NCBI GenBank assembly: GCA_023247725.1
Contig: JAHFFW010000010.1
Location: 7,734 to 71,733, forward strand
From: Candidatus Omnitrophota bacterium
GTDB lineage: Bacteria > Omnitrophota > Gorgyraeia > Zapsychrales > JAHFFX01
Direction: 5' to 3'
DNA length: 64,000 nucleotides
Position numbers and translations under genes: made by a program. Shown piece after piece: positions 25,748 to 39,447 of the stretch. The notes beneath the pieces were generated by a model. It did not search any database, was not told the DNA's origin, and saw nothing but the letters and a program-made list of their open reading frames with translations. How positions within the stretch are numbered: the stretch's first letter is position 1; every line of letters begins with the position of its first letter.

Positions 25748-25945
25748 ATGGTGAAAAAGGAAGAAGTTTTAACCGCAGAAGAAGTTGCGGAATATCTAAG
25801 GATTCATCCGTACACGCTGAGACGATTAGCCCGGGCAGGCAAACTCCCGGGCTTTAAAATTGGTGGGCAGTGGAGGTTTCGGAAAGATGAAATCGACGCA
25901 TGGTCAAAAGGATCTAAGAATAAGAAGAAAAAAGGGAAATCATAA
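25748..25945 (+). CDS. excisionase-family / MerR-type HTH DNA-binding protein
   Basis: LTAEEVAEYLRIHPYTLRRLARAGKLPGFKIGGQWRFRKDEIDAW is the 'excisionase family DNA binding domain' HTH pattern. 65 aa. The stop overlaps the next ATG. Confidence 0.6.
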   Translation: MVKKEEVLTAEEVAEYLRIHPYTLRRLARAGKLPGFKIGGQWRFRKDEIDAWSKGSKNKKKKGKS

Positions 25946-28900
25946 TGCCGAGAATCTTTGACAATATCGATCTTGATTTATTAACGGCCTTAAAAGAAAC
26001 TTTAAACGTTTCTAATCGTGCTGATTTCTGCGTTGGCTATTTTAATTTGAGGGGATGGAGGCAGATAGATTCTTATATTGAACGTTGGGCCGGTGGTGAG
26101 GGAAAGTGCTGCCGGTTGTTGGTCGGGATGTCAAAGTTACCCCAGGATGAATTGCGAGAAGCGCTAAGCCTTGTGAAGAACGAGGAAGGAATTGATAACC
26201 AAACGGCTTTACGCCTTAAGAAGAAACTAGCCGAGGAATTCCGAAACCAGTTAGCTTGGGGTATACCTACAAATGAAGATGAAGTTGGTCTGCGGCGTTT
26301 GGCATCACAAATTAAGGCTCAAAAGGTTGTGGTCAAGCTATTCCTGCGACACCCTCTCCATGCAAAACTCTATCTGCTTTTTCGTCCTGACCCCATTAAC
26401 CCTACTGTGAGTTATCTTGGCAGTAGCAATCTAACTTTCGCTGGTCTATCTAAACAAGGCGAGTTAAACATTGACGTGTTAGACCACGACGCTTGCCAGA
26501 AATTGTCCAGATGGTTTGAAGATAGATGGGATGATCACCGGTGCATTGATATTTCAAAAGAACTGGCAGATATAATTGATGAGAGTTGGGCGCGCGAGGA
26601 GCAGCCCATTCCTTATTACATATATCTTAAAATGGCTTATCACTTATCGCAGGAGGCTCGAGTTGGTCTGTCTGAATTTAAAATTCCAAAGGAGTTTGGT
26701 CAAAAGCTTTTTGAATTTCAAACAGCGGCGGTTAAGATAGCGGCTCACCATATTAATAAACGTGGTGGTGTGCTAATAGGTGATGTTGTGGGCTTGGGAA
26801 AAACACTAATGGCCACGGCCGTCGCGCGCATTTTCGAAGACGATCACGGACTCGAAACCTTAGTCATCTGCCCCAAGAACTTGGTCCCTATGTGGGAAGA
26901 CTACCGAGAGCAATATCGTTTACATGCCAAAGTGCTTTCCATCAATCGTGCGGCGCGAGAGCTTCCAAGTTTACGCCGATACCGCTTAGTTATTATCGAT
27001 GAGAGTCACAATCTTCGTAATCGTGAGGGGAAACGCTATCGAGCAATTCAAGAATATTTGCAGGAAAATGAAAGTAAGGTAATACTGCTTTCGGCTACTC
27101 CCTATAATAAAACCTATTTGGATTTATCTAATCAATTACGGCTTCTCGTTTCTGCTGATAGTGATATCGGGATTCGCCCCGAACGAAAATTGCGTGAAAT
27201 GGGTGAAACCGAATTTATCCGCCAGCATCAGTGTTCAGTTCGTTCTCTCGCCGCATTTGAAAAGAGTGAATATGCCGATGACTGGCGTGAGCTGATGCGC
27301 CTCTATCTTGTGCGCAGAACACGCACGTTCATCCAGGATAATTACGCTGAAACTGATCCAACGAATGGAAGAAAGTTTTTAACATTTGAAGACGGCACGC
27401 GATCCTATTTCCCGACCCGCATACCAAAGACTGTACCGTTTCATATTGACGATCATAATCCATCAGACCAGTATGCTCAGCTTTATGCGCCTGACGTTGT
27501 CGATATAATCAACCATCTCAATTTACCCAGATATGGTCTAGGCAATTATGTAGCCGCCACCCCCCATAAGCCGCCAACGGCAACTGAGCAAAAGATTTTA
27601 CAAGATCTTTCTCGTGCTGGTCGAAGACTCATGGGTTTCTCGCGAACAAACCTATTTAAACGTCTGGAGAGCAGCGGGCATGCTTTTCTCCAATCGGCTG
27701 AACGGCATATCTTACGGAATTTTATCTTTCTTCACGCTATCGAGAATGACCAGCCGATACCCATTGGAACGCAAGACGCCGAGATTCTCGATACACGATT
27801 CTCTGATGAAGATAAAACAGTTGAGTTATTTAACGATAATGATGACGATGGAGAAGTGGCTGAGGAAACGACATCACTAAGGAGTGAAAAAGATTTCAAA
27901 AATCGAGCTTCAGAAGTTTATTCAGAGTATTTCAAATTACACAAACATCGTTTTAAATGGCTGCCGCCGGAATTTTTCGTTAAATCACTGGCTAATGATT
28001 TACGAGCTGACATAGATACACTTATGAGAATTTTGAACAAATGCAAGCAGTGGGACCCTGCCAAGGATGCGAAACTCGATGCGCTTTACGACCTGTTAAT
28101 AAAAAAATACCCGAATGACAAAGTCCTGATTTTTACCCAATTCGCCGACACGGTACGTTATCTTGAGAAACAACTAACTGATCGTAAGGTTGCAAAACTG
28201 GCTGGCGTTACCGGTGACTCTTCTAATCCCACTGCCTTAGCCTGGCGCTTTAGCCCAATTAGCAATAACAAACAAGAGTATATTAAACCAGCTGATGAAC
28301 TTCGTGTATTAATTGCGACGGATATCCTGAGCGAGGGGCAAAACCTCCAGGATTGTTCCGTTGTGGTCAATTTCGACCTGCCCTGGGCTATCATTCGTTT
28401 AATTCAGCGGGTTGGACGCGTAGACCGTATCGGACAGAAAGCCGAGAAAATATTATGTTATTCATTTCTGCCAGCCGAGGGGGTTGAGCAAATTATTAAT
28501 TTGCGCAACCGTGTGCGACAGAGACTCAGTGAAAATGCCGAAGTGGTAGGGACAGATGAGGCATTTTTCGAAGACGACCGCGATGACAGAAGAGTGCTCG
28601 ATCTATATCACGAAAAATCCGGAATCTTGGATGGAGATGCTGACAGCGAAGTGGATCTTGCATCCTATGCCTACCAGATTTGGAAAAATGCTATTACAGA
28701 GAATCCGGAGTTGCAAAAAGTTATTCCTGAACTGCCGGATGTCGTTTACTCTACAAAACCAATTAAGCCAACTGAAAAAGAACCAGAGGGAGTATTGGTT
28801 TATCTTCGCACGGCAGAAGGAAATGACGCGCTCACTTGGGTCAGTAAAGACGGAAAAAGTGTTACCGAATCACAACTTACAATTCTTAAAGCCGCTGAGT

Positions 28901-29322
28901 GCGCGTCCAATACCCCTACAGTCCAGCGCATGGAAGAACATCATCAGTTAGTTCAGAAAGGCGTTGAGCTGATTGTCGCAGAAGAAAAGTCTGTCGGTGG
29001 CCAGTTAGGACGTCCATCGGGTGCGCGTTTCCGGACATACGAGCGTTTGAAACGATATGTAGAGGAAGTAAAAGGCACTCTTTTCGAATCCCAAGAACTA
29101 CTCAAAGCTATTGAGGAAATATACCGCTATCCCCTGCGGTCGACTGCCCTAGACACCCTCAACCGTCAATTAAGAAGCGGTATATCTGATCAGACATTGG
29201 CGGAATTGGTCGTGGCCCTCCGTGATGAAGGCCGATTGTGTATTATTAATGAGGAAGAGCAGGTTCACGAACCGCAGATTATCTGTTCTCTTGGGCTCGT
29301 TTCTAAGCGGGAGGCCAAGTAA
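25945..29322 (+). CDS. fused PLD-family (HKD) nuclease + SNF2-family helicase
   Basis: N-terminal HAKLYLL.....LGSSNLT (HxK...GSxN HKD motif). Then SNF2 motifs GDVVGLGKTLMA (I), VIIDESHNLRN (II, DExH), LLSATPYNK (III), QRVGRVDRIGQ (VI). 1125 aa. Confidence 0.85.
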   Translation: MPRIFDNIDLDLLTALKETLNVSNRADFCVGYFNLRGWRQIDSYIERWAGGEGKCCRLLVGMSKLPQDELREALSLVKNEEGIDNQTALRLKKKLAEEFRNQLAWGIPTNEDEVGLRRLASQIKAQKVVVKLFLRHPLHAKLYLLFRPDPINPTVSYLGSSNLTFAGLSKQGELNIDVLDHDACQKLSRWFEDRWDDHRCIDISKELADIIDESWAREEQPIPYYIYLKMAYHLSQEARVGLSEFKIPKEFGQKLFEFQTAAVKIAAHHINKRGGVLIGDVVGLGKTLMATAVARIFEDDHGLETLVICPKNLVPMWEDYREQYRLHAKVLSINRAARELPSLRRYRLVIIDESHNLRNREGKRYRAIQEYLQENESKVILLSATPYNKTYLDLSNQLRLLVSADSDIGIRPERKLREMGETEFIRQHQCSVRSLAAFEKSEYADDWRELMRLYLVRRTRTFIQDNYAETDPTNGRKFLTFEDGTRSYFPTRIPKTVPFHIDDHNPSDQYAQLYAPDVVDIINHLNLPRYGLGNYVAATPHKPPTATEQKILQDLSRAGRRLMGFSRTNLFKRLESSGHAFLQSAERHILRNFIFLHAIENDQPIPIGTQDAEILDTRFSDEDKTVELFNDNDDDGEVAEETTSLRSEKDFKNRASEVYSEYFKLHKHRFKWLPPEFFVKSLANDLRADIDTLMRILNKCKQWDPAKDAKLDALYDLLIKKYPNDKVLIFTQFADTVRYLEKQLTDRKVAKLAGVTGDSSNPTALAWRFSPISNNKQEYIKPADELRVLIATDILSEGQNLQDCSVVVNFDLPWAIIRLIQRVGRVDRIGQKAEKILCYSFLPAEGVEQIINLRNRVRQRLSENAEVVGTDEAFFEDDRDDRRVLDLYHEKSGILDGDADSEVDLASYAYQIWKNAITENPELQKVIPELPDVVYSTKPIKPTEKEPEGVLVYLRTAEGNDALTWVSKDGKSVTESQLTILKAAECASNTPTVQRMEEHHQLVQKGVELIVAEEKSVGGQLGRPSGARFRTYERLKRYVEEVKGTLFESQELLKAIEEIYRYPLRSTALDTLNRQLRSGISDQTLAELVVALRDEGRLCIINEEEQVHEPQIICSLGLVSKREAK

Positions 29323-29325
29323 ACT

Positions 29326-32300
29326 ATGCCCGTTGCCGTCGTCAATTGCAGGAATTACCTGAGGAATTTTGATCTAAATTCATTGTTTATCGAACAACTG
29401 GGCTGGGACATTCATGCCCAAACGTTGGAAGTCGCTGTTGACGGGAAAAATTTTATTTTAAATGCTGTAGCTCAAAAACGAGGCATGGCCGCATTTGTCC
29501 TTAATGGCCGCATTCCTGATTATTCCACGCGACGCAAAATTGAGCGTCAGGTAGCTAAGTCCGCCCATGAACACCTGATCATTTTTACTGATCCTGATCA
29601 GACAGTCCAAACATGGCAGTGGGTAAAGCGCGAGGCCGGGAAGCCAATCGCCTGCAGAGAGCATATTTATCACCGCAACCAATCCGGAGACGGGCTGATT
29701 CAGAAACTTCAAGCGATTGCCATTAGCATTGAAGAGGAAGAAAGCTTAACGCTTCCTCAAGTCGTTAACCGTGCGCGGACAGCCTTTGATGTCGAACGTG
29801 TCACTAAACGCTTCTATGATTGCTTCAAAACCGAACATGATGCTTTCTTCCGATTTATCAAAGGGATTCCTGATGATGAACTGCACCGCTGGTATGCTTC
29901 CGTTATGCTCAACCGGCTGATGTTCATCTATTTCATTCAAAAAAAAGGCTTCCTCGATGGTGATACTAATTACCTTCAGACGAAATTGATGCAAGCTAAG
30001 CAGCGGGGCAAAGATTGTTTCTATCGCGAACAGCTCTGCCCGCTATTCTTTGAGGGTTTCGCCAAAAAGCCCTCCCAGCGATCAGCCTCAAGTAACAAAC
30101 TTTTGGGCAAAGTGCCTTATCTAAACGGCGGGATCTTTCAACGTCATCAAATTGAAGAGCTTCATGGAAAACAAATTCAGATTTCCGATGCCGCCTTCGA
30201 GAAATTATTCAGTTTCTTTGAACAATACCACTGGCATTTGGACGAACGCCCGCTTCGCTCCGATAATGAAATCAACCCGGATGTTCTTGGTTACATTTTC
30301 GAAAAATACATCAACCAGAAGCAGATGGGGGCGTATTACACCAAAGAAGATATCACGGGCTACATCAGCAAATACACGATCAGTCCGTTCCTCTTCGAGG
30401 CGGCCCGCGGCAAATGCAAAGTGGCTTTTGAAAACCCTAAGGGACCTACTATCTGGGATTTGCTTAAAACCGATCCGGATCGTTATATCTATAATGCTGT
30501 CAAAAAAGGGATGAATCTGCCCCTGCCTCCGGAAATCGCGGCCGGGGTTAAGGACGTTGCCAAGCGCACCGAATGGAACAAACAAGCGTCCGAAGAATAT
30601 GCCCTTCCACCCGAAATTTGGCGCGAAGTCATTGAGCGGCGCAAACGCTATGAAGAAGTTAAAAGGAAACTAACCACAGGAGAAATCAAGGATATCAACG
30701 ATCTCATCACCTATAACCTCGACATTCGCCAGTTTGCCCAGGATGTCATAGAAAATTGTGAAGGCCCGGAATTGCTCCGTGCCTTTTGGCATGGTATTGA
30801 ACCAATTACCGTGCTCGACCCGACCTGCGGCAGCGGGGCGTTTTTGTTTGCCGCCGTGAACATTCTTGAGCCGCTTTACGAAGCCTGCCTTGACCGGATG
30901 GAGATGTTTGTTGAAGAGATGGAGTGTTCTGCTCAAAAACACCGCCCTGAGAAATTTTCCGATTTTCGCAAAATCCTAGAGCGTGTTGCTCAGCATCCCA
31001 ATCGCAGATATTTTATTTTCAAATCTATCATCGTCAATAACCTTTACGGTGTGGATATTATGGAAGAGGCTGTCGAAATCTGCAAGTTGCGCCTGTTTCT
31101 CAAGCTTGTTGCGCAGATTGACCGTGAAGAGCAAATCGAACCGTTGCCCGACATCGACTTCAATATCCGGGCCGGTAATACACTGATTGGCTATGCCACT
31201 TACGAGGAGATGAAAAGCGCCATTACAAGCCGGCTTGATTTTGATAATGCCTTGGATCGTATTGAAAAAAGGGCTCAGGATGTGGATCGACTGTTTAGTT
31301 TATTTCGTCAACAACAGACTGAATTAGGTGGCGAGGTCGCAGCTGAAGATAAACAGGTTTTACGAGATCGCCTTAAATCTCTTGAAGATGAACTCAATCA
31401 GTACCTCGCCAACGAATACGGCGTGGATACCAAGAAGCACGGTCCTTACGAACAATGGCTGAAAACGCATCATCCGTTTCATTGGTTTATCGAATTTTAC
31501 GGCATCATGAAGAAAGGCGGGTTCAATGTCATAATCGGTAACCCGCCATACCTTGAATTACGCGAAGTACGGTATACTCCCCAAAATTTTAAATGTGGGA
31601 ATAGTGGGGCAATCCATGCGATGTGTATCGAACGCAGTGTGCAGTTACTCCATCGACAGGGATGCATGAGCATGATTGTTCCATTGTCCTTGGTCTCAAC
31701 ACAACGAATGCAGATCGTTCAGGAAGTTCTAGAAACTAAACGAAACGCTTGGTATTCAAATTACTCGTGGCGCCCGGGTAAGCTTTTCGATACAGTTAAC
31801 CGCGCCCTGACTATCTTCGCTAGCACGCCATCAGAAAAAGGTAGAACATTCTCGACTAACTATCAGAAATGGACATCTGATAGTCGTGATTTACTTATGT
31901 TAAAACTCAACTTCATTGAAATCTTTCGACCGCGACCGGCTTGTTGGATTCCCAAACTTGGTAATGAGATAGAACCTTCAATTTTAAAGAAATGTTTACA
32001 AGTAAAAGTCCCATTAGGCAGTTTTATCCGAAATAATAATTACAGGATTTACTATCGCACCACTGGAGGCCTCTATTGGAAAGTATTTACAGATTTTCCA
32101 CCCGCATTCAAAGTTAATGGAAAGGTCGGTCACTCCAGTCGAGAAACTAAGTTTTCGTTAACCGACGCAAGATTTGTTTTTCCTGTCATAGCTGTTTTAA
32201 GCAGCGATCTGTTTTGGTGGTGGTACACTATCACAACTAATTGTCGTGATCTTAACCCTTATGATATACAGAATTTTCCTATTCCTGAATCTGCGATAAC

Positions 32301-32562
32301 TGACGCAGCGCTGTCAAGCTTAGGAGAAAAATACCTGAAAGATATTAAGCAAAATAGCATCATGCTGGTTCGTGTTCAAAGACAAACTGGCAGGACTCAA
32401 ACTCAGTCGTTTAAAATCCAAAAGACTAAGGCGATCATCGATGAAATTGACCAAGTGATAGCTAATCATTATAGGCTTAATCAAGAAGAGATAGACTTTA
32501 TCACAAATTATGACATCAAGTACCGCTTAGGTTTCGATGATGAAGATAACGATGAAGAATAG
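29326..32562 (+). CDS. MmeI/PglX-family (type IIG / BREX-like) N6-adenine DNA methyltransferase
   Basis: KVPYLNGGIFQ...LGYIFEKYINQKQMGAYYTKEDITGYI parallels MmeI (FPYINGKLFE...IFGSLFQSI...LGAHYTSEANI). Motif I VLDPTCGSGAFLFAAV and motif IV VIIGNPPYLE (NPPY). The N-terminal ~100 aa contain a possible degenerate PD-(D/E)xK (IIFTD...QWVK). ~1078 aa with a long C-terminal TRD-like region. Confidence 0.85.
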   Translation: MPVAVVNCRNYLRNFDLNSLFIEQLGWDIHAQTLEVAVDGKNFILNAVAQKRGMAAFVLNGRIPDYSTRRKIERQVAKSAHEHLIIFTDPDQTVQTWQWVKREAGKPIACREHIYHRNQSGDGLIQKLQAIAISIEEEESLTLPQVVNRARTAFDVERVTKRFYDCFKTEHDAFFRFIKGIPDDELHRWYASVMLNRLMFIYFIQKKGFLDGDTNYLQTKLMQAKQRGKDCFYREQLCPLFFEGFAKKPSQRSASSNKLLGKVPYLNGGIFQRHQIEELHGKQIQISDAAFEKLFSFFEQYHWHLDERPLRSDNEINPDVLGYIFEKYINQKQMGAYYTKEDITGYISKYTISPFLFEAARGKCKVAFENPKGPTIWDLLKTDPDRYIYNAVKKGMNLPLPPEIAAGVKDVAKRTEWNKQASEEYALPPEIWREVIERRKRYEEVKRKLTTGEIKDINDLITYNLDIRQFAQDVIENCEGPELLRAFWHGIEPITVLDPTCGSGAFLFAAVNILEPLYEACLDRMEMFVEEMECSAQKHRPEKFSDFRKILERVAQHPNRRYFIFKSIIVNNLYGVDIMEEAVEICKLRLFLKLVAQIDREEQIEPLPDIDFNIRAGNTLIGYATYEEMKSAITSRLDFDNALDRIEKRAQDVDRLFSLFRQQQTELGGEVAAEDKQVLRDRLKSLEDELNQYLANEYGVDTKKHGPYEQWLKTHHPFHWFIEFYGIMKKGGFNVIIGNPPYLELREVRYTPQNFKCGNSGAIHAMCIERSVQLLHRQGCMSMIVPLSLVSTQRMQIVQEVLETKRNAWYSNYSWRPGKLFDTVNRALTIFASTPSEKGRTFSTNYQKWTSDSRDLLMLKLNFIEIFRPRPACWIPKLGNEIEPSILKKCLQVKVPLGSFIRNNNYRIYYRTTGGLYWKVFTDFPPAFKVNGKVGHSSRETKFSLTDARFVFPVIAVLSSDLFWWWYTITTNCRDLNPYDIQNFPIPESAITDAALSSLGEKYLKDIKQNSIMLVRVQRQTGRTQTQSFKIQKTKAIIDEIDQVIANHYRLNQEEIDFITNYDIKYRLGFDDEDNDEE

Positions 32563-33151
32563 AACTCCTGCGGATATGGAAACTCGTGAAGTTTCAAGAG
32601 GCCATCACGATTATCCGAATCAACTCATTCGTTGTTTTGAGAATAGATCGCCTTTAATTATCACTATGCAAGGCAACATTTCGATTTTTCGAAATGATAA
32701 ATTGGCCCTCTTTTGTTCGGTCAAATGTCCCGGCAAGGTCATCATTACGCTTTATGACTATATGCAAGCTTTGTGTGAGCAAGGCCAAACGGTCATCAGC
32801 GGTTTTCATTCACCCTTGGAGAAAGAATGCCTCCGCATTCTGCTCCGCGGCCGACAACCAGTTATTATCTGCCCGGCTCGAGCTATTCAAAATATGCGCT
32901 TGCCGGAGGACTGGAAGAAACCGCTTCAAGAAGGCCAACTGCTTTTGATATCGCCTTTCAAGGGAAACCAACGTCGGGTTACTATAGATCATGCTCAACA
33001 ACGAAATGAATTTGTCGCAGCCCTAGCGGACAGGATATTGATTCCCTATTCGTTCCCTGGTGGACGAACGGAAAAACTGCTTGAAAAGATTTCGCGCTGG
33101 AATAAACCCATTCTAACAGATATCGGATCAACCATGCAGTTTGCAAGATAA
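32537..33151 (+). CDS. DprA/Smf-like Rossmann-fold (SLOG) protein
   Basis: YPNQLIRCFENRSPLIITMQGN...LALFCSVKCPG...VISGFHSPLEKECLRILLRG...VIICPA...LLLISPF....RNEFVAALADRILI matches the DprA core (YP.LL..i.dpP.vLy.rG...vAiVGSRk.s...SGlA.GID..aH..aL..gG.tiaVl..gl...vvSE.....RNriiagLs..vlvve). The start overlaps the MTase stop (translational coupling). Confidence 0.65.
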   Translation: MMKITMKNRTPADMETREVSRGHHDYPNQLIRCFENRSPLIITMQGNISIFRNDKLALFCSVKCPGKVIITLYDYMQALCEQGQTVISGFHSPLEKECLRILLRGRQPVIICPARAIQNMRLPEDWKKPLQEGQLLLISPFKGNQRRVTIDHAQQRNEFVAALADRILIPYSFPGGRTEKLLEKISRWNKPILTDIGSTMQFAR

Positions 33152-33235: not shown

Positions 33236-33270
33236 GGCAAGGCCTAAGATTGGTTTTGCCATTTTTTATT
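33236..33270 (+). terminator. weak terminator-like hairpin after the MTase/DprA-like operon
   Basis: GGCAA-(15 nt)-TTGCC followed by ATTTTTTATTTATT. A second hairpin CGACCATT-N12-AATGGTCG lies at 33162-33189. Confidence 0.3.
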
Positions 33271-33305
33271 TATTGGGATCTGTTTTTGCTCGTTAAAGAT
33301 TTTCA

Positions 33306-33334
33306 TTGACAAAAATAAAGTCAATTGATATAGT
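33306..33334 (+). promoter_or_regulatory. strong sigma70-like promoter (TTGACA-17-TATAGT) driving the Ubl-conjugation operon
   Basis: ttgaca aaaataaagtcaattga tatagt lies ~40 nt upstream of the first ORF of the operon. Flanked by two CAATTG palindromes, a possible operator. Confidence 0.55.
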
Positions 33335-33375
33335 ATGTGCAATTGTAACAGTTTAATTGAATATGGAGGTGTGAA

Positions 33376-33549
33376 ATGGTCGCAAAACCAACGATTCAGG
33401 AGCTAGAGGCTCTTTTAAATAGTGAAGAGGAGACGCCTATGCAAATTCTTCCTAATGGGGAAATCAGAGCCGTTGGGCAGACAAATCCTGCTGATCTTGC
33501 AGGGAAGAAGCCAATAACCATGAAAGAAGATTTAGGTGGAGAATATTGA
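33376..33549 (+). CDS. 57-aa ORF ending ...KEDLGGEY; candidate ubiquitin-like/Pup-like modifier or conjugation substrate
   Basis: Not in the ORF track because it is under 60 aa. RBS GGAGGTG 6 nt upstream of ATG 33376. The stop overlaps the start region of the E2 gene. Translation: MVAKPTIQELEALLNSEEETPMQILPNGEIRAVGQTNPADLAGKKPITMKEDLGGEY. It is the first gene after the strong promoter. The di-Gly lies 2 residues from the C-terminus, in an operon that encodes E1, E2 and a JAB peptidase. Confidence 0.4.
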   Translation: MVAKPTIQELEALLNSEEETPMQILPNGEIRAVGQTNPADLAGKKPITMKEDLGGEY

Positions 33550-33551
33550 TT

Positions 33552-33926
33552 ATGGATACTGGTCGTATTCAAAGAGAATTTTTAGAAGCCCAAAGAGCCT
33601 TTTCCTACATTGAGCTTCACCCTACTATCGATGGCAAGGTGTACGTAAAGACAGCGCTCCAAGCTTCAAATCAAATGTATATTCTATCCATTAAGTTCCC
33701 AGATGGTTATCCGAACGAGATGCCAAGAGTATTTGTTGATACCCCAGCCATAACGACTGCTCCACACAGATATCAAAATGGCCATATCTGTTATCTTCAC
33801 CCTACGATGTGGAATCCAGGAATTCACAATATTTCTTTTGTAATTGCGCGGGCAGCAAAATGGTTAAACAAATATGAGATTTGGAAACGTCAAGGTCAGT
33901 GGCCCGGTGCGGAGATTAAACACTAA
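33552..33926 (+). CDS. E2-like ubiquitin-conjugating enzyme (UBC fold, catalytic Cys)
   Basis: FPDGYPNEMPRVFV.....PHRYQNGHICYLHPTMWNPG matches the UBC core (..P..PP.v.F.t.i.HPN....G.ICLdiL...WsP). Start taken at ATG 33552 (MDTGRIQ) with GGTGGAG as RBS. Confidence 0.65.
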   Translation: MDTGRIQREFLEAQRAFSYIELHPTIDGKVYVKTALQASNQMYILSIKFPDGYPNEMPRVFVDTPAITTAPHRYQNGHICYLHPTMWNPGIHNISFVIARAAKWLNKYEIWKRQGQWPGAEIKH

Positions 33927-33938
33927 GAGAAGGTAACT

Positions 33939-34472
33939 ATGAAAATAGATTTTAAAACTTTAAAAATGATGGAATTGAGAAGTTCTCCTGGAGAGGTTTT
34001 AGATCGGGTAGCCAGAGATGGGGAGGTATTTGTCATTGAGAGAAATGGTCAGCCCAAAGCATGCCTTGTTCCGGTTTCTTTTCTTCTGCCTGATATTTCT
34101 CCAGAAAGGATAACGGAGGAGTTAAATAAACTTCGCGATAAAAAGGAAAATTATAAATTAACGATTAATGATCATAAGGAACTTGAGATTAAATTTCAGG
34201 AGAGTGCTGCTGGCGAAAATATTGTAATCAGTATCGTGCTGCCACACGGGTATCCCAACGCTGCTCCCAGAATTGACGCACAGGGTATTCCAGAAAACAC
34301 GCCCCATCGATGGCAAGATGGGTCTTTATCGATTTTTGGAACCATAGCAACGTGGAATACCAAGAGTCACGATATCATTTACGCATTAATTGTAGCCAGA
34401 AGTTGGCTTAAGCAATACGCGAAATGGCGAAAAACTGGTGAATGGCCAAAAGATTTGCAGGACGGATCATGA
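33939..34472 (+). CDS. Phd/YefM-like N-terminal domain fused to a catalytically inactive E2 variant (UEV-like)
   Basis: N-terminus LKMMELRSSPGEVLDRVARDGEVFVIERNGQPKACLVPVSFL matches the Phd/YefM antitoxin fold pattern. C-terminus LPHGYPNAAPRIDA....PHRWQDGSLSIFGTIATWN is paralogous to the upstream E2, but the active-site Cys is replaced by Ser. Confidence 0.55.
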   Translation: MKIDFKTLKMMELRSSPGEVLDRVARDGEVFVIERNGQPKACLVPVSFLLPDISPERITEELNKLRDKKENYKLTINDHKELEIKFQESAAGENIVISIVLPHGYPNAAPRIDAQGIPENTPHRWQDGSLSIFGTIATWNTKSHDIIYALIVARSWLKQYAKWRKTGEWPKDLQDGS

Positions 34473-35323
34473 AAAAAGATCAAACATTCGAGAGAATTGA
34501 CTCCCTTTTTGATATTCAACTTTTGGCACCTGTCCGGGTGCTATTCGCTGGCTGTGGCTCCGGTGGAGGAAGTGTAGCTCTCCAACTTGTCATGTCGGGA
34601 ATTCGTAATTTTACACTTTTAGATCGGGATATCCTTGGAGCAGAAAATGTTATTAGGCATGTTTGCGGAAGAAGTTTTATAGGGAAAAAGAAAGTCGATG
34701 CCTTAACGGAAATTTTACAGGACAGGAATCCAAATATCGATGTCAAAAAGATAGAAGCGGACATAATGAATTTTTCGGATATTGAATCAGAAATTTGCGG
34801 ATCTGATGTTGTTGTTTTGGCGACGGACAACGAACCATCCCGTTATAAAATTAATGAAATTTGCGTAAAAAATGAAATTCCTTTTGTCGTGGGACGGGTT
34901 TTTACCAGAGGTATTGGAGGCGAGGTCTTTAGTTATCGACCTGACTCTGGGGGATGTTTGGCTTGTCTTGAATCTTTTTTGCAGCGTACTTCATATAGAG
35001 AAGGGATAAGGGAGATAGATCTTGTTTCTGAGGAAGAGCGGGAGAAAATTTATGGTATGGAAATTTCAGAAATAAAAGACTCCCCCGGTCTGGCGGTGGA
35101 TATTTCCTTTATTACTTCTTTCCATACAAGGTTTGTATTGGACGCTATTGCGCGGCGTTTGAAAGATCGGCCTAAGTATTTGAATTTGATAGATGAAAAT
35201 TATTTAGTTTGGGGGAACCGGCCGGTGCATCCGTTTAAGAAACATTTTCAGTTGCAAAGATTTAATTTAGATCGTCAGGAGAGTTGCGCACTATGCTCGG
35301 AGAGGAATGTGGCCGATGTTTAA
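34469..35323 (+). CDS. E1-like ubiquitin-activating enzyme (ThiF/MoeB family)
   Basis: VLFAGCGSGGGSVALQLVMSGIRNFTLLDRDILGAENVIRH (Rossmann GxGxxG + D.D.v..sNl.RQ) and two CxxC pairs (GGCLACLE...CALCSE). ATG 34469 overlaps the upstream stop (ATGA). Confidence 0.8.
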   Translation: MKKDQTFERIDSLFDIQLLAPVRVLFAGCGSGGGSVALQLVMSGIRNFTLLDRDILGAENVIRHVCGRSFIGKKKVDALTEILQDRNPNIDVKKIEADIMNFSDIESEICGSDVVVLATDNEPSRYKINEICVKNEIPFVVGRVFTRGIGGEVFSYRPDSGGCLACLESFLQRTSYREGIREIDLVSEEEREKIYGMEISEIKDSPGLAVDISFITSFHTRFVLDAIARRLKDRPKYLNLIDENYLVWGNRPVHPFKKHFQLQRFNLDRQESCALCSERNVADV

Positions 35324-36236
35324 ATCAAAAAAGCCAGAGGTTAATATTTATATTCCGAAATCAGCACTTGGTGTGATTTATGATGAATGTGATCAGTATG
35401 ACCTTGATGAAACAGGCGGCAGGCTCATTGGAAATTATAAAAAAAATGGTAATAAATATACAATTGAGGTCTCAGGGATTATAGAACCCGGCCCAAAAGC
35501 GACAAGGACAGCAACGAGCTTTTTTCAGGACGGAGAATATCAGGAGAAGATTTTTAGATCAGTTGAAGAAAAACATCCCGACGTTGAACATCTGGGAAGT
35601 TGGCACACACATCACGTTAATGGCCTTGATACTTTGAGTTCTGGTGATAGGGCTACTTACCAGAGGATTGTCAATCACCATATGCATAATACGGATTTTT
35701 TCTATGCGCTTTTAGTTGTTGAAAAGAAAACCGGCGGGCAACAAAGGTATACGATCAAACATTATTTCTTGCGTCGCAAAGATTCGGCGATTTATGAAAT
35801 TCCGGACTCACAGGTTCACATTATAGATAAGCCCCTCATTTGGCCGTTCAGCGGCGCAAATAATTATTTACCGTCGTCTATACCTAAGGCTGTGGAGGTC
35901 AAAAGCAACTCCAATCAGGAACGTGTCAAAGATCAAGAATTTTTCGCTGAATTTTATTCCGGCTTTAAGCCTTTATTCTCAAAGAACACGAATGCCTTTT
36001 ATTGGAAAGGTAAATTGAATCTTGTTGATAACACCTTTTTAGACGTGGTGGTTATAGAAAATCAGGATGATCATGGATGGGCCTATTCGATCGCTGTTGC
36101 TGATCAGATCCCATCAATATCCAATATTTTGACAAGTTACAAAGATCGTACCTTTAAATCTGCAAGGCTTGCCGTGTTTAATATAGAGAGAAACATCAAT
36201 CAAGGAATTTATCTTAAAAAGGAATCAAATGTATGA
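35307..36236 (+). CDS. JAB/JAMM (MPN+) metallopeptidase, deubiquitinase-like
   Basis: ETGGRLIG ... HLGSWHTHHVNGLDTLSSGD fits the JAMM motif E...H(S/T)H-x7/8-S-x2-D. Confidence 0.8.
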   Translation: MWPMFKSKKPEVNIYIPKSALGVIYDECDQYDLDETGGRLIGNYKKNGNKYTIEVSGIIEPGPKATRTATSFFQDGEYQEKIFRSVEEKHPDVEHLGSWHTHHVNGLDTLSSGDRATYQRIVNHHMHNTDFFYALLVVEKKTGGQQRYTIKHYFLRRKDSAIYEIPDSQVHIIDKPLIWPFSGANNYLPSSIPKAVEVKSNSNQERVKDQEFFAEFYSGFKPLFSKNTNAFYWKGKLNLVDNTFLDVVVIENQDDHGWAYSIAVADQIPSISNILTSYKDRTFKSARLAVFNIERNINQGIYLKKESNV

Positions 36237-37072
36237 ACATTATCACAGTCAATGTTGGTCAAGGTGCCCTTTCCTTGGTAAGACATAATAAGGAAGCAAT
36301 TGTAATTGATTCTAGAATTCCACCTTCAGATGACAAAACTGTCGCTTATGTGAAAGAAATGTTGATGGTGTCGCTAAAGGATCACTATGTTAAGGGTCTT
36401 ATATTAACCGGTTTTGATAGTGATCATTCGGATATAACGGGAGTTTCTATTATTCTCCGTAAGTATCGCCCTGATTGGGTCGTGTATCCCAAGTACTATA
36501 AGGAGAGTGAAGAGGCGAGATCGGTTTTTGAACGAATAGAACAAGAGGAAAAAGAAAGATGCAGTTCAACAAATCCTTTGAAAAGAATTTCTGTTAGACT
36601 TGATCAACTAAAGAATCGAAAACTTGTGGGGCTCTCTTCAAACTTTGAGTTTGAATTATTTTCTCCCCATATTGAGGATATGGACTGTTCTAACAATTGC
36701 AGTATTGTACTTAAATTGTCTGGAATCGGGGCAGGCGGTTTTTCATATTTGATAACGGGCGATACAGAAAATGAAAGATGGGAAACAATTAGCAAATTTT
36801 TTGGCGAGGCTCTTAAATCTCATATTTTGGCTGCGCCGCATCATGGCTCAAAAAACGCTACCCATCCCGCATCCCTGCTTCATATTGAACCTCACACTGT
36901 ACTTATCAGCGCTGGCGTAGACAATCAATATGGCCATCCCGACCCGGAGGCCTTAAGAGTTTATAGCCGGGTTGCAAAATTTGTATTCTCCACAAATATG
37001 CAAAACGGTGTTTCACTTTTTACGCGGGACGGAATAACCGGATTTACCACGGAATTGATCCCAAGTAATTAG
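36233..37072 (+). CDS. MBL-fold protein, ComEC/Rec2 C-terminal nuclease-like, degenerate motif I
   Basis: VNVGQGALSLV...AIVIDS...LILTGFDSDHSD (HxHxDH degenerated to GFDSDH) ... ITGDTE...ILAAPHHGSKNA (ComEC-type HHGS). ATG overlaps the JAB stop (ATGA). Confidence 0.65.
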   Translation: MNIITVNVGQGALSLVRHNKEAIVIDSRIPPSDDKTVAYVKEMLMVSLKDHYVKGLILTGFDSDHSDITGVSIILRKYRPDWVVYPKYYKESEEARSVFERIEQEEKERCSSTNPLKRISVRLDQLKNRKLVGLSSNFEFELFSPHIEDMDCSNNCSIVLKLSGIGAGGFSYLITGDTENERWETISKFFGEALKSHILAAPHHGSKNATHPASLLHIEPHTVLISAGVDNQYGHPDPEALRVYSRVAKFVFSTNMQNGVSLFTRDGITGFTTELIPSN

Positions 37073-37148
37073 TATATGTGCAATGCTATGTTAAGAGTTC
37101 TGTTATTCTTGTGTGTCAACGCAGTCGGAAAATATCGAAATGAGGTAA

Positions 37149-38249
37149 ATGGATATGGGTTATGATGTAGATTTTTTACCGGTAGGTGACGGAGAGAAGG
37201 GGGGCGATGCGATTGCTGTGCGATGGGGAAATCTAAACGGGAATCGCACAGAACAGAAAGTAATGGTCATTGATGGAGGGACGAAAGATTCAGGGAATGC
37301 TCTTGTAAAACACATTAAAGAATATTACAAAACTGATTTTGTTGATTATGTATTTTGTACTCATCCGGATGCCGATCATGCCTCTGGATTAACGGTTGTC
37401 TTAGAAGAATTAAAAGTTGGTATCTTGTGTATGCATCGTCCATGGGAACATGCCGCAGATATTAAAAATTTGTTTCAGAATGGGAAGATAACAGCAACGA
37501 GTCTCAGAGAAAATCTTCGTAAGGCACTCGAGAACGCGCATGAACTTGAAAGCATTGCGACTAAAAAAGGTATCAAGATTTTTGAGCCGTTTTCCGATAG
37601 TGTTACGAATTCAAATTCTCCATTGACAATTTTAGGACCCAGTGAGGAATTTTATCAATTGATGCTTGCTAATTTTCGGGAAACGCCCAAGCCGAAGGAT
37701 AATGTTAATATTCTCGGTCGCAGTGCTATACTTACCGCCGTTCGGGAAGCAATCCGATGGATAGGGGAAACATGGGGAGTGGAAACCCTTGCAGATCCTG
37801 AGGAGTTTGAAACGAGTGCAGAAAATAATTCCAGCGTTATACTTCTTTTACAGGTTGATGGAAATAAGCTTCTCTTTACGGGCGATGCAGGTGTTGAATC
37901 TCTTGATGCTGCTATTAATAAAGCAATTACTTTGGGGATTGATTTAACGGGTATTTCCTTTATTCAAATTCCGCATCATGGGAGTAAGCATAATGTCAGT
38001 CCATCTCTACTCGATAAACTGGTTGGTCCTAAATTAACCAATGATATTTCTAATAAAACAGCGTTTGTGAGTGTGCCCTTAAAGGGAGATCCAAAGCATC
38101 CATCAAGGAAAGTGACAAATGCCTTCAAAAGGCGAGGTGCGAAGGTTATAGCAACAAAAGAAAGCACGAAACATCATTTTAAAGATGCCCCTGATCGCGG
38201 CTGGGTTAAGGCGGAACCATTGCCTTTCTATGACCAAGTTGCTGATTAG
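37149..38249 (+). CDS. MBL-fold protein, ComEC/Rec2 C-terminal nuclease-like (paralogue of 36233..37072)
   Basis: VDFLPVGDGEKGGDAIAV...VMVIDGGT...YVFCTHPDADHASG ... LLFTGDAGVESLD...IQIPHHGSKHN. The start may be ATG 37155, which has better RBS spacing. Confidence 0.65.
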   Translation: MDMGYDVDFLPVGDGEKGGDAIAVRWGNLNGNRTEQKVMVIDGGTKDSGNALVKHIKEYYKTDFVDYVFCTHPDADHASGLTVVLEELKVGILCMHRPWEHAADIKNLFQNGKITATSLRENLRKALENAHELESIATKKGIKIFEPFSDSVTNSNSPLTILGPSEEFYQLMLANFRETPKPKDNVNILGRSAILTAVREAIRWIGETWGVETLADPEEFETSAENNSSVILLLQVDGNKLLFTGDAGVESLDAAINKAITLGIDLTGISFIQIPHHGSKHNVSPSLLDKLVGPKLTNDISNKTAFVSVPLKGDPKHPSRKVTNAFKRRGAKVIATKESTKHHFKDAPDRGWVKAEPLPFYDQVAD

Positions 38250-38972
38250 ATGTTAAAAGGAATCGATGTGATAAGACACGATAACTATACTTGGTATGCG
38301 CGGATCTATCCGGTCTTCATTGTTATCTTTCCGATAACCCTTGTTTGCATGGTTTGGTTTCAACCGTTGCTAGGATTTCTGACGGGTATCCTAAGTTCAG
38401 GGATAGCGAGTATTTTGTTTTCGCAGTTAGGGCGTGACCAAGGGAAATACAAGGAATCTAAATTATTTGAACTGTGGGGAGGGAATCCCGCTGTTCGCAT
38501 GCTTAGATATCGTGATTCGGTGTTAAGTCAGGTTACGGTTAGACGGATTCATGAGAAGCTTGCGAGTTTGGTGGCCAATACATATGCTGTGAACGAGAAA
38601 GAAGAAAAGGAAGATGCGGTAAAAGCGGATACTGTTTACACGTCGTGGGTTGAATGGTTGCGATCAATGACGCGGGATCAGAGTAAATTTTATCTTCTTT
38701 TTGCAGAAAATAAAAATTATGGATTCCGAAGAAATCTTTGGGGCATGAAATCCATAGGAATTTTGGTTTCCGTTTTATCATTAGTTGCGATCACTATTGC
38801 GCTTTATAGTGAATGGATGCGGATCGGATCTATTTCTTCGATAACTTTAGGGGCTTTTCTTTTCGTCATCTTTTGTTTTATTTTTTGGGTCTTTTGCTGT
38901 ACACCAAAATGGATACGCATTACTGCTGAAGCATATGCTAAACAACTGTTAGAGACTGTAGATCAGTTATAA
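38250..38972 (+). CDS. 4-TM membrane protein (2 TM + soluble loop + 2 TM), candidate effector or anchor
   Basis: Hydrophobic helices at ~18-40 and ~42-62 (IYPVFIVIFPITLVCMVWF; GFLTGILSSGIASILFSQL) and ~165-185 and ~195-215 (IGILVSVLSLVAITIALY; ITLGAFLFVIFCFIFWVFCC). Last gene of the operon; the start abuts the MBL2 stop. Confidence 0.5.
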   Translation: MLKGIDVIRHDNYTWYARIYPVFIVIFPITLVCMVWFQPLLGFLTGILSSGIASILFSQLGRDQGKYKESKLFELWGGNPAVRMLRYRDSVLSQVTVRRIHEKLASLVANTYAVNEKEEKEDAVKADTVYTSWVEWLRSMTRDQSKFYLLFAENKNYGFRRNLWGMKSIGILVSVLSLVAITIALYSEWMRIGSISSITLGAFLFVIFCFIFWVFCCTPKWIRITAEAYAKQLLETVDQL

Positions 38973-39051: not shown

Positions 39052-39447
39052 TCAAGAATGATTATTATTTGGTTGAGAGCTTTGGGCAAGGTTGCACAGT
39101 TGTTTGACGTTCATTTGGCGGAGGATTTTGGGGTCGTTACAATTGGCAAGTTCTGTGATAAGATTTGATGGTAGTCGATTAGCGATTGTGAGGAGTTTTG
39201 AGATGCGTTTACGGGGGATGTTCAATTTGGCGGCCGCGGAGAGGCAGGTTTCGTCCGGGTGCGCGGTCATGAAATTCTTCACCTGGAGCGCTTCAAGGAT
39301 GCAGTTTTGTGGCGGGGCCGGGGCCCGCGATCGTATTTCGGGCAGGGGCAGGTCGATTGAGGCCTGTAAAGCGCCGTAGCGTCTGGCATGGAATCTCATA
39401 ACCAATTGCGCCACAGGCGGTTCGCGGTTTTGACTTCCGCCAAGCAA
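39052..39447 (-). pseudogene. ParB-like (nuclease/HTH) gene remnant, N-terminally truncated
   Basis: RFHARRYGALQASIDLPLPEI resembles the ParB GERRyRAaklaGl..iPaiV box. The downstream region ...LSAAAKLNIPRKRISKLLTIANRLPSNLITELA...LRQMNVKQLCNLA resembles the ParB HTH region. The ~60 aa upstream of the box are missing. Flanked by AT-rich DNA. Confidence 0.35.

Follow-up and report, generated by a model that had tools for sequence, protein, structure and literature searches.

A split ubiquitin-like cassette with two ComEC-like metallo-β-lactamase proteins and a small membrane protein in an Omnitrophota contig: an apparent relative of 6A-MBL

A stretch of 64,000 nucleotides from a Candidatus Omnitrophota bacterium (assembly GCA_023247725.1, contig JAHFFW010000010.1, positions 7,734 to 71,733; hereafter the window) carries, at 33.3-39.0 kb on the plus strand, a run of genes for ubiquitin-like (Ubl) conjugation functions followed by genes for two metallo-β-lactamase-fold (MBL) proteins of the ComEC type, MBL1 and MBL2, and for a small protein with transmembrane (TM) segments. 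The question raised by this locus is what two such MBL proteins do between E1, E2 and JAB genes on one side and a membrane protein on the other. An earlier sequence-only reading had taken them for paralogues with degenerate metal motifs, either a nuclease and its regulator or a heterodimer, and had grouped them with the membrane protein as one effector module under Ubl control. The answer we favour, with a probability of about 55%, is that the whole of the 33.3-39.0 kb operon is an anti-phage system of the kind that combines Ubl machinery with an MBL enzyme, like 6A-MBL, with a layout parallel to that of type II CBASS (the antiphage signalling system based on cyclic oligonucleotides). Only part of the supposed effector module belongs to it by origin: the three genes lie with the E1, E2 and JAB genes in one apparent transcription unit, but of the three, the cassette has only MBL1 and the TM protein as native members.

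A conserved cassette with an exchangeable output

The core of the cassette consists, in this order, of a 57-aa protein ending in LGGEY, an E2 (E2a), a second E2-like protein with a Phd-like N-terminus (E2b), an E1, a JAB peptidase and MBL1. Its gene order was read in 10 genome loci and 80 metagenome loci, the latter being the best 80 of 326 hits, with a bias towards close relatives; related loci are labelled here by L-numbers, and open reading frames (ORFs) were called mechanically. The JAB gene is immediately upstream of MBL1 in all 66 loci with at least 1 kb of upstream DNA, and all five upstream genes occur in the same order as in the window in 42 of the 44 loci with at least 3.6 kb, the other two missing nothing but a detectable small ORF. 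MBL1 is an invariant core gene of the cassette and not an exchangeable effector. Altogether there are 1677 clusters of MBL1 homologues and 326 confirmed metagenome stretches, from Acidobacteriota, Alphaproteobacteria and other groups. The best 120 of the 1677 clusters are more than 70% identical to MBL1, and the homologues come from Mesorhizobium, Xanthobacteraceae, Acidobacteriaceae, Terriglobales and further groups; this patchy spread across phyla suggests that the cassette is transferred horizontally. In one locus (L018, 10001-12501) the 3' end of MBL1 is cut off, leaving 232 of 279 residues, and behind it is a 449-aa ORF that looks by eye like a reverse transcriptase, which may be an intron or retroelement insertion.

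The smaller components have features of their own. The E(N/D)LGGEY motif of the 57-aa protein is invariant in 48 distinct homologues, a few of which have 5-10 residues beyond GGEY; the protein has no Pfam or NCBIfam family, and we regard it as a candidate Pup-sized modifier of the Gly-Gly (GG) type. E2a is conserved in all full loci. E2b has a Ser where the catalytic Cys of an E2 is expected (DGSLS or DGALS in 44 of 57 loci), and would be either an inactive partner resembling the ubiquitin E2 variants (UEV) or a Ser-type E2 as in the Bub systems. The JAB models match only residues ~1-150 of the peptidase; no family matches its C-terminal extension of ~160-170 aa, whose conservation is lower (~50% identity vs ~72% for the rest of the cassette). 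Neither PADLOC nor NCBIfam has a model specific to the cassette proteins, a literature search found no paper describing a split six-gene cassette, and there is no operon type of this composition in Iyer et al. (2006). Judged by the comparisons described below, the cassette is apparently a widespread, undescribed relative of 6A-MBL.

What follows MBL1 is variable. Among the 70 loci with at least 900 bp downstream of MBL1, the first gene encodes a protein with TM segments in two pairs (2+2-TM) in 40 (41 with L096, missed by the ORF filter), a patatin-like phospholipase in 22 (23 with L013), an MBL protein in 2 (L021, L049) and something else in 4. The TM proteins in this slot belong to three sequence families, found respectively in 30 loci, in 12 loci and, for the type present in the window, in L020 and L099. 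An additional gene behind the slot encodes an NYN nuclease in 5 of the 70 loci and a second MBL protein in 11, and the spacing in loci with extra genes is tight, from 4-nt overlaps to ~20 nt. These second MBLs come from different subfamilies: those of L013, L019, L053 and L083 match model 04674 for M48B, the MBL half of the PADLOC candidate system PDC-M48; that of L092 is an MBL2-like gene; and in L049 the cassette is followed by a bona fide 6A-MBL_enzyme gene and a cap2_3-like gene. The last arrangement (L049, 8001-13525), in which the cap2_3-like protein has 768 aa and is itself followed by a patatin-like protein, amounts to two Ubl/MBL systems in tandem or fused.

Among the immune pathways of bacteria that use E1, E2 and JAB, 6A-MBL is the one understood least, and a widespread sister architecture is of practical value: with split genes, a visible candidate GG modifier and exchangeable outputs, the conjugation target, the role of the MBL protein and the killing agent become separately testable by genetics.

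MBL2 and the membrane protein

The motif 2 of MBL2 is H72-P-D74-A-D76-H77. The sequence-only reading had regarded this string, as well as the GFDSDH of MBL1, as an altered HxHxDH. Both strings were given correctly (THPDADH and LTGFDSDH), but the alteration holds for MBL1 only. What is written as H-x-H-x-D-H in ComEC is H598-x-D600-x-D602-H603, of which the H598A, D602A and H603A variants, like D700A, are virtually inactive, and D600A is reduced about five-fold (PMC12455585); the ComEC chains 9ic4 and 30bt carry the same THPDADH as MBL2. Because ComEC itself has HxDxDH, the HPDADH of MBL2 is canonical for the ComEC clade, and the motif is the normal one of that clade, not a degenerate HxHxDH. 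In the alignment of MBL2 with 36 homologues D42, H72, D76, H96, H101, D246, H276, H277, S279 and H317 do not vary, and D74 and H77 hardly do.

MBL2 matches the PDC-M48B model PDLC04676 with E = 3.3e-102 (residues 2-364 on positions 2-355 of 357). Its structural model is of good quality (predicted local distance difference test, pLDDT, 87.5; predicted TM-score, pTM, 0.89), and among solved structures this model is matched best by 9ic4, the nuclease domain of ComEC (E = 2.7e-13; TM-score, on the target, 0.76). MBL2 is ~100 residues longer than the ComEC domain; ~70 extra residues separate motif 2 from the NNSS strand, and the model has low confidence in a loop at 190-200. Among the curated models it scores 42.6 bits with ComEC_Rec2, 33.5 bits with 6A-MBL_enzyme and 61.3 bits with Avs1a. 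Proven DNases are found among its relatives: the C-terminal domain of ComEC (PMC12455585, PMC8579336), HamM and CanC (PMC12799240), and VcMBL (PMC12642450). From its motifs and its model, MBL2 is likely a metal-dependent DNase serving as a DNA-degrading effector. The family also has a conserved acidic C-terminal tail, LPFYxxVEE.

Elsewhere MBL2-type genes keep other company. In six independent contexts of MBL2 homologues (50-68% identity) a small unannotated protein of 160-253 aa is encoded 3-55 nt downstream, which is a TM protein in every case checked; E1, E2 or JAB genes are found in none of the six, and restriction-modification (R-M) genes of type I, II or IIG, or integrases, are near in all six. 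Likewise, of 41 MBL2-type loci in IMG/VR, the 40 with an intact ORF all have a TM partner gene, usually adjacent; none of these 40 has an MBL1 relative, and 37 are without a cap2_3-like gene. Thus the MBL2 and TM families commonly occur without Ubl genes, an outcome that the sequence-only reading would have counted against itself in non-defence surroundings; the contexts, however, are always those of defence or mobile elements, not of housekeeping genes. Two variations in the arrangement of the pair were seen: in 18 prophage-like loci (L116-L131, L145, L154) the best M48A-like TM ORF is on the opposite strand, in 17 of them convergent and no more than ~35 nt downstream of the MBL2-type gene, so that the two are adjacent there without being co-transcribed; and in L137 a TM gene of the window type is 70 nt upstream of the MBL2-type gene.

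The closest relative of the operon, in L020, shows how MBL2 is related to the cassette. Its DNA is 79% identical to the window over 33283-37072 and 76% identical over 38266-38912, and what it lacks is exactly 37073-38265, that is, the spacer and MBL2. MBL2 is a mobile PDC-M48B gene, present as a one-gene indel in the cassette operon. A recent foreign origin was considered on the basis of composition and rejected, as GC content and GC content at third codon positions (GC3) of MBL2 equal those of the neighbouring genes; for the same reason the indel may have gone in either direction.

The TM protein has four hydrophobic segments in two pairs (~19-37 and 41-59, 168-186 and 198-216; the scan merged the first two, which were split by hand), in agreement with the 2+2 layout proposed from the sequence. 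By the positive-inside rule we predict that the termini and the ~100-aa loop are cytoplasmic. Three motifs of the loop, GRDxGK, WGGxP and YGFRRNLWG, are conserved at 97-100% across 120 homologues (YGFRRNLWG at 99-100%), and by this conservation the loop (~residues 60-165) resembles a site of binding or catalysis more than part of a passive pore former. The 359 clusters of the family are all unnamed, and with E values of up to 1 allowed, no PADLOC model matches the protein.

TM genes of the window type are found after MBL1 in L020 (68% identity) and L099, and after MBL2-type genes in L008, L109 and L113, in the last case behind an MBL gene alone. In L111 (Oscillatoria) such a gene is directly behind bona fide 6A-MBL_enzyme and cap2_3 genes (438.6 and 565.9 bits), and in L112 it precedes genes for an MBL protein, a Cap2-like E2-E1 protein and a JAB. 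The M48A type is similarly distributed, following MBL1 in L081 and an MBL2-type gene in both L001 and L104, the partner of the MBL2-type gene in L001 being PDC-M48A itself (1.6e-66); and the TM type of L084 matches the partner in L107. How the TM families are related to each other is less clear-cut: a hidden Markov model of the commonest one (G0) found none of the others, and hhalign gave at best a probability of 79.5% (window type vs the L004 protein) and 57-59% for two other pairs, with no signal for G0 or M48A. They have a common architecture, and their homology can be proposed only tentatively. The ComEC-like MBL protein with a small 2+2-TM protein is a recurring dyad, to which the Ubl genes are an optional addition. 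In this way shared 2+2-TM partner families link three separately catalogued entries, 6A-MBL, PDC-M48 and the split cassette, which suggests that MBL-based defence has in the TM protein a component that was overlooked. Genes of the TM families seen here also accompany 6A-MBL_enzyme/cap2_3 genes in L111 (2450-6732, Oscillatoria sp. FACHB-1407), L143 and L146; in L111 the genes next to the TM gene are a pPIWI-RE system.

An alternative explanation arises at this point, namely that MBL2, alone or together with the TM protein, forms a self-contained module of the PDC-M48 type which merely neighbours the cassette in a defence island, so that there are two independent systems with no coupling. The strength of the PDC-M48B match, the 76-nt spacer in front of MBL2, and the stand-alone occurrence of MBL2-type and TM genes beside type I, II and IIG R-M genes and on prophage-like contigs are all as such a module would have them. 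The position of MBL2 is not: within the operon it has MBL1 on one side and, on the other, a TM gene which in L020 is a native part of the cassette, its spacer contains neither a terminator nor a strong promoter by pattern scan, its GC and GC3 are those of its neighbours, and the same TM families serve MBL1 and MBL2-type genes. We consider this explanation unlikely, if the most credible of the alternatives.

MBL1, related systems and competing readings

The best solved-structure matches of MBL1 are also ComEC chains (E down to 1.9e-16), and both MBL proteins carry PHHGS; in these two respects the sequence-only reading was accurate. In MBL1, motif 2 is G60-F-D62-S-D64-H65, the first His being absent and G60 aligning with H598 of ComEC, and the D-x-D-H, the motif-4 Asp, HHGS and GHP are retained. 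An alignment of 35 homologues (80% mean column identity) has T59-G60-F61-D62-x-D64-H65, H146, D177, H203, H204, S206 and H235 invariant. As judged from this alignment, the loss of the first His is a fixed family character under strong selection, and not the degeneration that had been seen in GFDSDH. A wider superfamily alignment, made up of one true ComEC, a pair of bona fide 6A-MBL enzymes and further MBLs associated with the cassette, has the Asp of motif 1, the D-H of motif 2, the Asp of motif 4 and HH invariant throughout, and the first His of motif 2 is missing only in MBL1 (Gly) and in an 'MBL3' subfamily (Asn); the Ser of HHGS is invariant inside each family's own alignment (S206 in MBL1, S279 in MBL2). 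MBL1 scores 92.5 bits with ComEC_Rec2, its best curated match, 39 bits with 6A-MBL_enzyme and 22.2 bits with Avs1a, and matches the PDC-M48B model with 4e-10. The Pfam scan of the two MBL proteins returned only matches of the Lactamase_B type and no competence channel domain; neither protein has TM segments, and their N-termini are not signal-peptide-like. On its motifs we read MBL1 as a specialised, conjugation-regulated DNA-binding or processing core and not as a generic DNase, because the equivalent of H598, which ComEC needs for nuclease activity, is permanently lost.

Of the known systems, the one nearest to the cassette is 6A-MBL, operon type 6a, with a fused E2-E1-JAB protein and a specialised MBL (Iyer et al. 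2006, PMC1779556). It is cited as a validated anti-phage system in PMC11601596 (its ref. 27; citing van den Berg 2024), PMC13276650 and 10.1101/2025.09.30.679545, where the statement on protection from phages concerns P. aeruginosa only. The cassette likewise places an MBL-fold gene next to E2, E1 and JAB functions, is found in a setting of defence and mobile elements, and shares with 6A-type genes TM partners of the families seen here, behind or beside them in L111, L143 and L146; 6A-MBL may have an unrecognised third component, the TM protein. The differences are that E2, E1 and JAB are separate genes in the cassette and fused in 6A-MBL, that the cassette has the Phd-fused E2-like protein, the 57-aa LGGEY protein and the variable slot (TM, patatin, NYN, extra MBL), and that the first His of motif 2 is kept by the 6A-type MBLs and absent from MBL1. 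With the NCBIfam cut-offs (320 bits for NF058523 cap2_3, 220 for NF058524 6A-MBL_enzyme, 190 for TIGR00361 ComEC, 420 for NF041809 Avs1a) the positive controls pass (L111 cap2_3 and enzyme; L049 enzyme, 296.7 bits) and the proteins of the window fail both 6A-MBL models, which makes the cassette a relative of 6A-MBL and not a member. A tblastn search with MBL1 and E1 in a plasmid collection found no example of 6A-MBL; the only hits were true ComEC genes, type II CBASS, an unrelated locus with JAB, E1 and TIR and, on a Mesorhizobium plasmid, the cassette itself.

Other systems resemble parts of the operon. PDC-M48 (M48A, small TM protein; M48B, MBL protein), of which a literature search found neither a mention by name nor a published test, has its M48B matched over the full length by MBL2, which is likewise paired with a small 2+2-TM protein; however, the TM protein of the window is of another family than M48A, and the pair is embedded in a Ubl operon. 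The C-terminal MBL domain of ComEC (9ic4, 30bt) is a Mn-dependent DNase. MBL2 resembles it in fold and shares its THPDADH, motif-4 Asp, HHGS and GHP/KHP, but MBL1 and MBL2 have no oligonucleotide-binding (OB) or channel domain, are soluble and predicted to be cytoplasmic, and score below the ComEC cut-off. In Hachiman, AVAST, Lamassu, DRT and canu the ComEC-like MBLs are zymogens of DNases, which an adjacent protease opens (PMC12799240, PMC12642450). These pro-nucleases (HamM, VcMBL, CanC), whose active site is covered by two linkers, are an instance of ComEC-like MBL effectors recruited modularly by unrelated defence systems, and MBL2, which carries extra segments, matches the PADLOC models LmuA (8.4e-29), RTasMBL (3.2e-22) and Avs1a (4.5e-13); its curated Avs1a score is nevertheless far from the cut-off, and the operon has no trypsin-, caspase- or subtilisin-like protease, JAB being its only peptidase, with a TM partner instead. 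As for type II CBASS, its models are matched by E1 (1.5e-32), E2a (2.6e-13) and JAB (2.1e-16) of the cassette, and both consist of one invariant enzyme with an exchangeable patatin, TM or nuclease gene, the MBL and TM genes alone corresponding to the version without Ubl genes, CBASS type I. Unlike in CBASS, no nucleotidyltransferase was found among the proteins of the operon, nor a recognised cyclic-nucleotide sensor domain; its E1 and E2 are unfused, and it has a small GG protein as a separate component.

Operon anatomy, the strict tie of MBL1 to the cassette, the modular slot, the conserved catalytic residues, the fold of MBL2 and its indel are observations; a role in defence, the activity of a DNase, the conjugation partners and the order of events are inferred, as follows. 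Infection would be sensed first; E1 and E2a, with E2b as a non-Cys partner, would then conjugate the LGGEY protein or MBL1 itself, and JAB would trim, process or reverse the conjugate. The TM protein and the MBL2 nuclease would subsequently be released, and the resulting membrane and DNA damage would kill or arrest the infected cell. The output slot would consist here of the native 2+2-TM protein, preceded by the PDC-M48B-type MBL2. The surroundings of related loci, with R-M genes, integrases, toxin-antitoxin genes and prophage-like contigs, are of the defence type.

Several observations weigh against this picture. Scores with 6A-MBL_cap2_3 (E1 51.2 bits, JAB 43 bits) and 6A-MBL_enzyme (see above for both MBL proteins) are far under the cut-offs, which means that a defence role is carried over to the cassette from a related system and not from one of which it is a member. 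The operon has no identified sensor. The structure prediction for MBL1 is poor (pLDDT 65.6, from a shallow alignment with >70% identity), and a fold search with it returned just 'MBL fold, Pce-like'; MBL1 might still be an active hydrolase, with H146 or H18 as a ligand. Its C-terminus is ...IPSN, whereas the last residue of 6A-type MBLs is Gly or Ala (L111 ...PHG, L112 ...RYG, L049 ...RHA), as it is in conjugated CD-NTases (the nucleotidyltransferases of CBASS); the acidic tail of the MBL2 family differs from these too. MBL2 may act independently of the cassette, as stand-alone pairs of MBL2 and TM genes exist elsewhere and MBL2 has a 76-nt upstream spacer of its own. Finally, matches to promoter and terminator patterns are overall no more frequent than chance, which leaves a single transcription unit probable but not proven.

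The parallel with CBASS can be carried further than we do. MBL1 would then take the place of the CD-NTase, as a sensor enzyme that is primed by Ubl conjugation and makes or releases a small nucleic-acid-derived signal for the exchangeable effectors. The architecture is indeed that of CBASS types I and II, with an invariant enzyme, Cap2/Cap3-like genes and a variable slot; the patatins of the slot match CBASS phospholipase effector models, if weakly (3.2e-5); MBL1 is extremely conserved and yet without a residue essential to the ComEC nuclease; and the TM loop is conserved like a binding site. To our knowledge, though, there is no MBL-fold signal synthase, the TM and patatin proteins showed no known sensor domain, be it SAVED, CARF, STING or another, and the stand-alone MBL2-type proteins keep a full nuclease site. 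Signalling of this kind seems to us rather improbable, and the same low credence goes to its broadest form, in which ComEC-like MBLs with 2+2-TM proteins constitute, next to CBASS and Pycsar and on the same plan, a third family of immune pathways. In that family the 'type I' form would be MBL and TM (PDC-M48), and 6A-MBL and the split cassette would be 'type II' forms with Ubl priming; the His-less MBL1 would be a sensor enzyme and not a bulk nuclease, signalling to TM, patatin, NYN and MBL2 proteins, and E1, E2 and JAB would act on the 57-aa LGGEY protein as a modifier of the size of Pup.

The proposal that MBL1 and MBL2 are a paralogous pair, nuclease and regulator or heterodimer, acting with the TM protein as one Ubl-controlled module, has in its favour the two adjacent MBL genes in one operon, the first missing a catalytic His and the second with the complete set. 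Their relationship is more distant than 'paralogous' implies: BLASTP aligns them at 21-25% identity in two short segments (E = 2e-4), and each belongs to a large family of its own, so the two are superfamily relatives and not a recent pair, as far as their sequences tell. MBL1 has no second MBL in 59 of the 70 loci, including its nearest relative L020, MBL2-type genes are found without MBL1 in all stand-alone contexts and in the 40 viral-contig loci, and MBL1 is invariant whereas effectors vary. An obligate heterodimer was rejected on these distributions, and the pair in its general form is improbable. A weaker version of the idea survives, in that a second, different MBL of varying subfamily is recruited behind the cassette in the 11 loci mentioned above.

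Least probable by far is a role outside defence, as a split ComEC-like device for DNA uptake or processing or a set of housekeeping hydrolases, for which the ComEC_Rec2 score of MBL1 and a DprA-like gene upstream speak, and against which stand the missing channel domain, ComEC scores under 190 bits for both proteins, N-termini unlike signal peptides in spite of the extracytoplasmic location of the MBL domain in ComEC, the match of the DprA-like protein to the defence protein PsyrA, contexts that are all R-M, integrase, toxin-antitoxin or prophage-like, and a phylum distribution suggestive of horizontal transfer; the split ComEC or competence role was rejected.

Operon anatomy and neighbouring genes

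The three genes singled out in the sequence-only reading are present on the plus strand where it had placed them (Table 1), and with 1677, 2770 and 359 homologous clusters for MBL1, MBL2 and the TM protein all three are real genes. As to the translational coupling that was proposed for them, an ATGA overlap joins the stop of JAB to the start of MBL1, and the TAG stop of MBL2 directly adjoins an ATG of the TM ORF; MBL1 and MBL2 are separated by the spacer and are therefore not coupled to each other. The true start of the TM gene is probably GTG 38268, which is preceded by AAGGA, begins the database gene call P0241 (234 aa), and is where homology to the L020 counterpart begins.

Table 1. Features of the probable operon at 33.3-39.0 kb of the window
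Feature	Position	Strand	Evidence or remark
Promoter-like site TTGACA-17-TATAGT with upstream TG	33306..33334	+	11/12 matches; likely operon start
57-aa protein ending DLGGEY, first cassette gene	33376..33549	+	ORF; 4-nt overlap with E2a
E2a, UBC-like E2	33546..33926	+	UQ_con 4e-5; CBASS E2 model 2.6e-13
E2b, Phd/YefM-like N-terminus and second E2/RWD-like domain	33939..34472	+	PhdYeFM_antitox 4.2e-7; RWD weak; E2 models
E1, ThiF-type adenylating enzyme	34442..35323	+	ThiF 4.9e-31; CBASS E1-E2 model 1.5e-32
JAB/MPN peptidase, 309 aa	35307..36236	+	Prok-JAB; JAB model 2.1e-16
MBL1, 279 aa, ComEC-like MBL fold, sixth cassette gene	36233..37072	+	
Spacer, 76 nt	37073..37148	+	Missing, together with MBL2, from closest related operon
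MBL2, 366 aa, PDC-M48B-type ComEC-like MBL protein	37149..38249	+	
2+2-TM protein, 240-aa ORF	38250..38972	+	Probable start GTG 38268

A single transcription unit over 33.3-39.0 kb is probable from the pattern scan. A terminator-like hairpin at 33236-33260 comes shortly before the promoter-like site, and the next terminator-like site on the plus strand is at 39312, apart from one weak hairpin at 34303-34322.

Upstream of the cassette, at 25945-32562 on the plus strand, are genes for a protein with PLD and SNF2 helicase domains (1125 aa, PADLOC HKD+Snf2 1.2e-53) and for a type IIG Eco57I-like methyltransferase (1078 aa). A similar helicase/methyltransferase pair is directly in front of an MBL2-type gene and a TM gene in L004 (2268-9986) and L007 (118-7836). 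The DprA-like protein of 204 aa (32537-33151, plus strand; DNA_processg_A 1e-9, PADLOC PsyrA 4.4e-18) is encoded between the methyltransferase and the cassette, its gene overlapping the end of the methyltransferase gene and having a terminator-like hairpin behind it.

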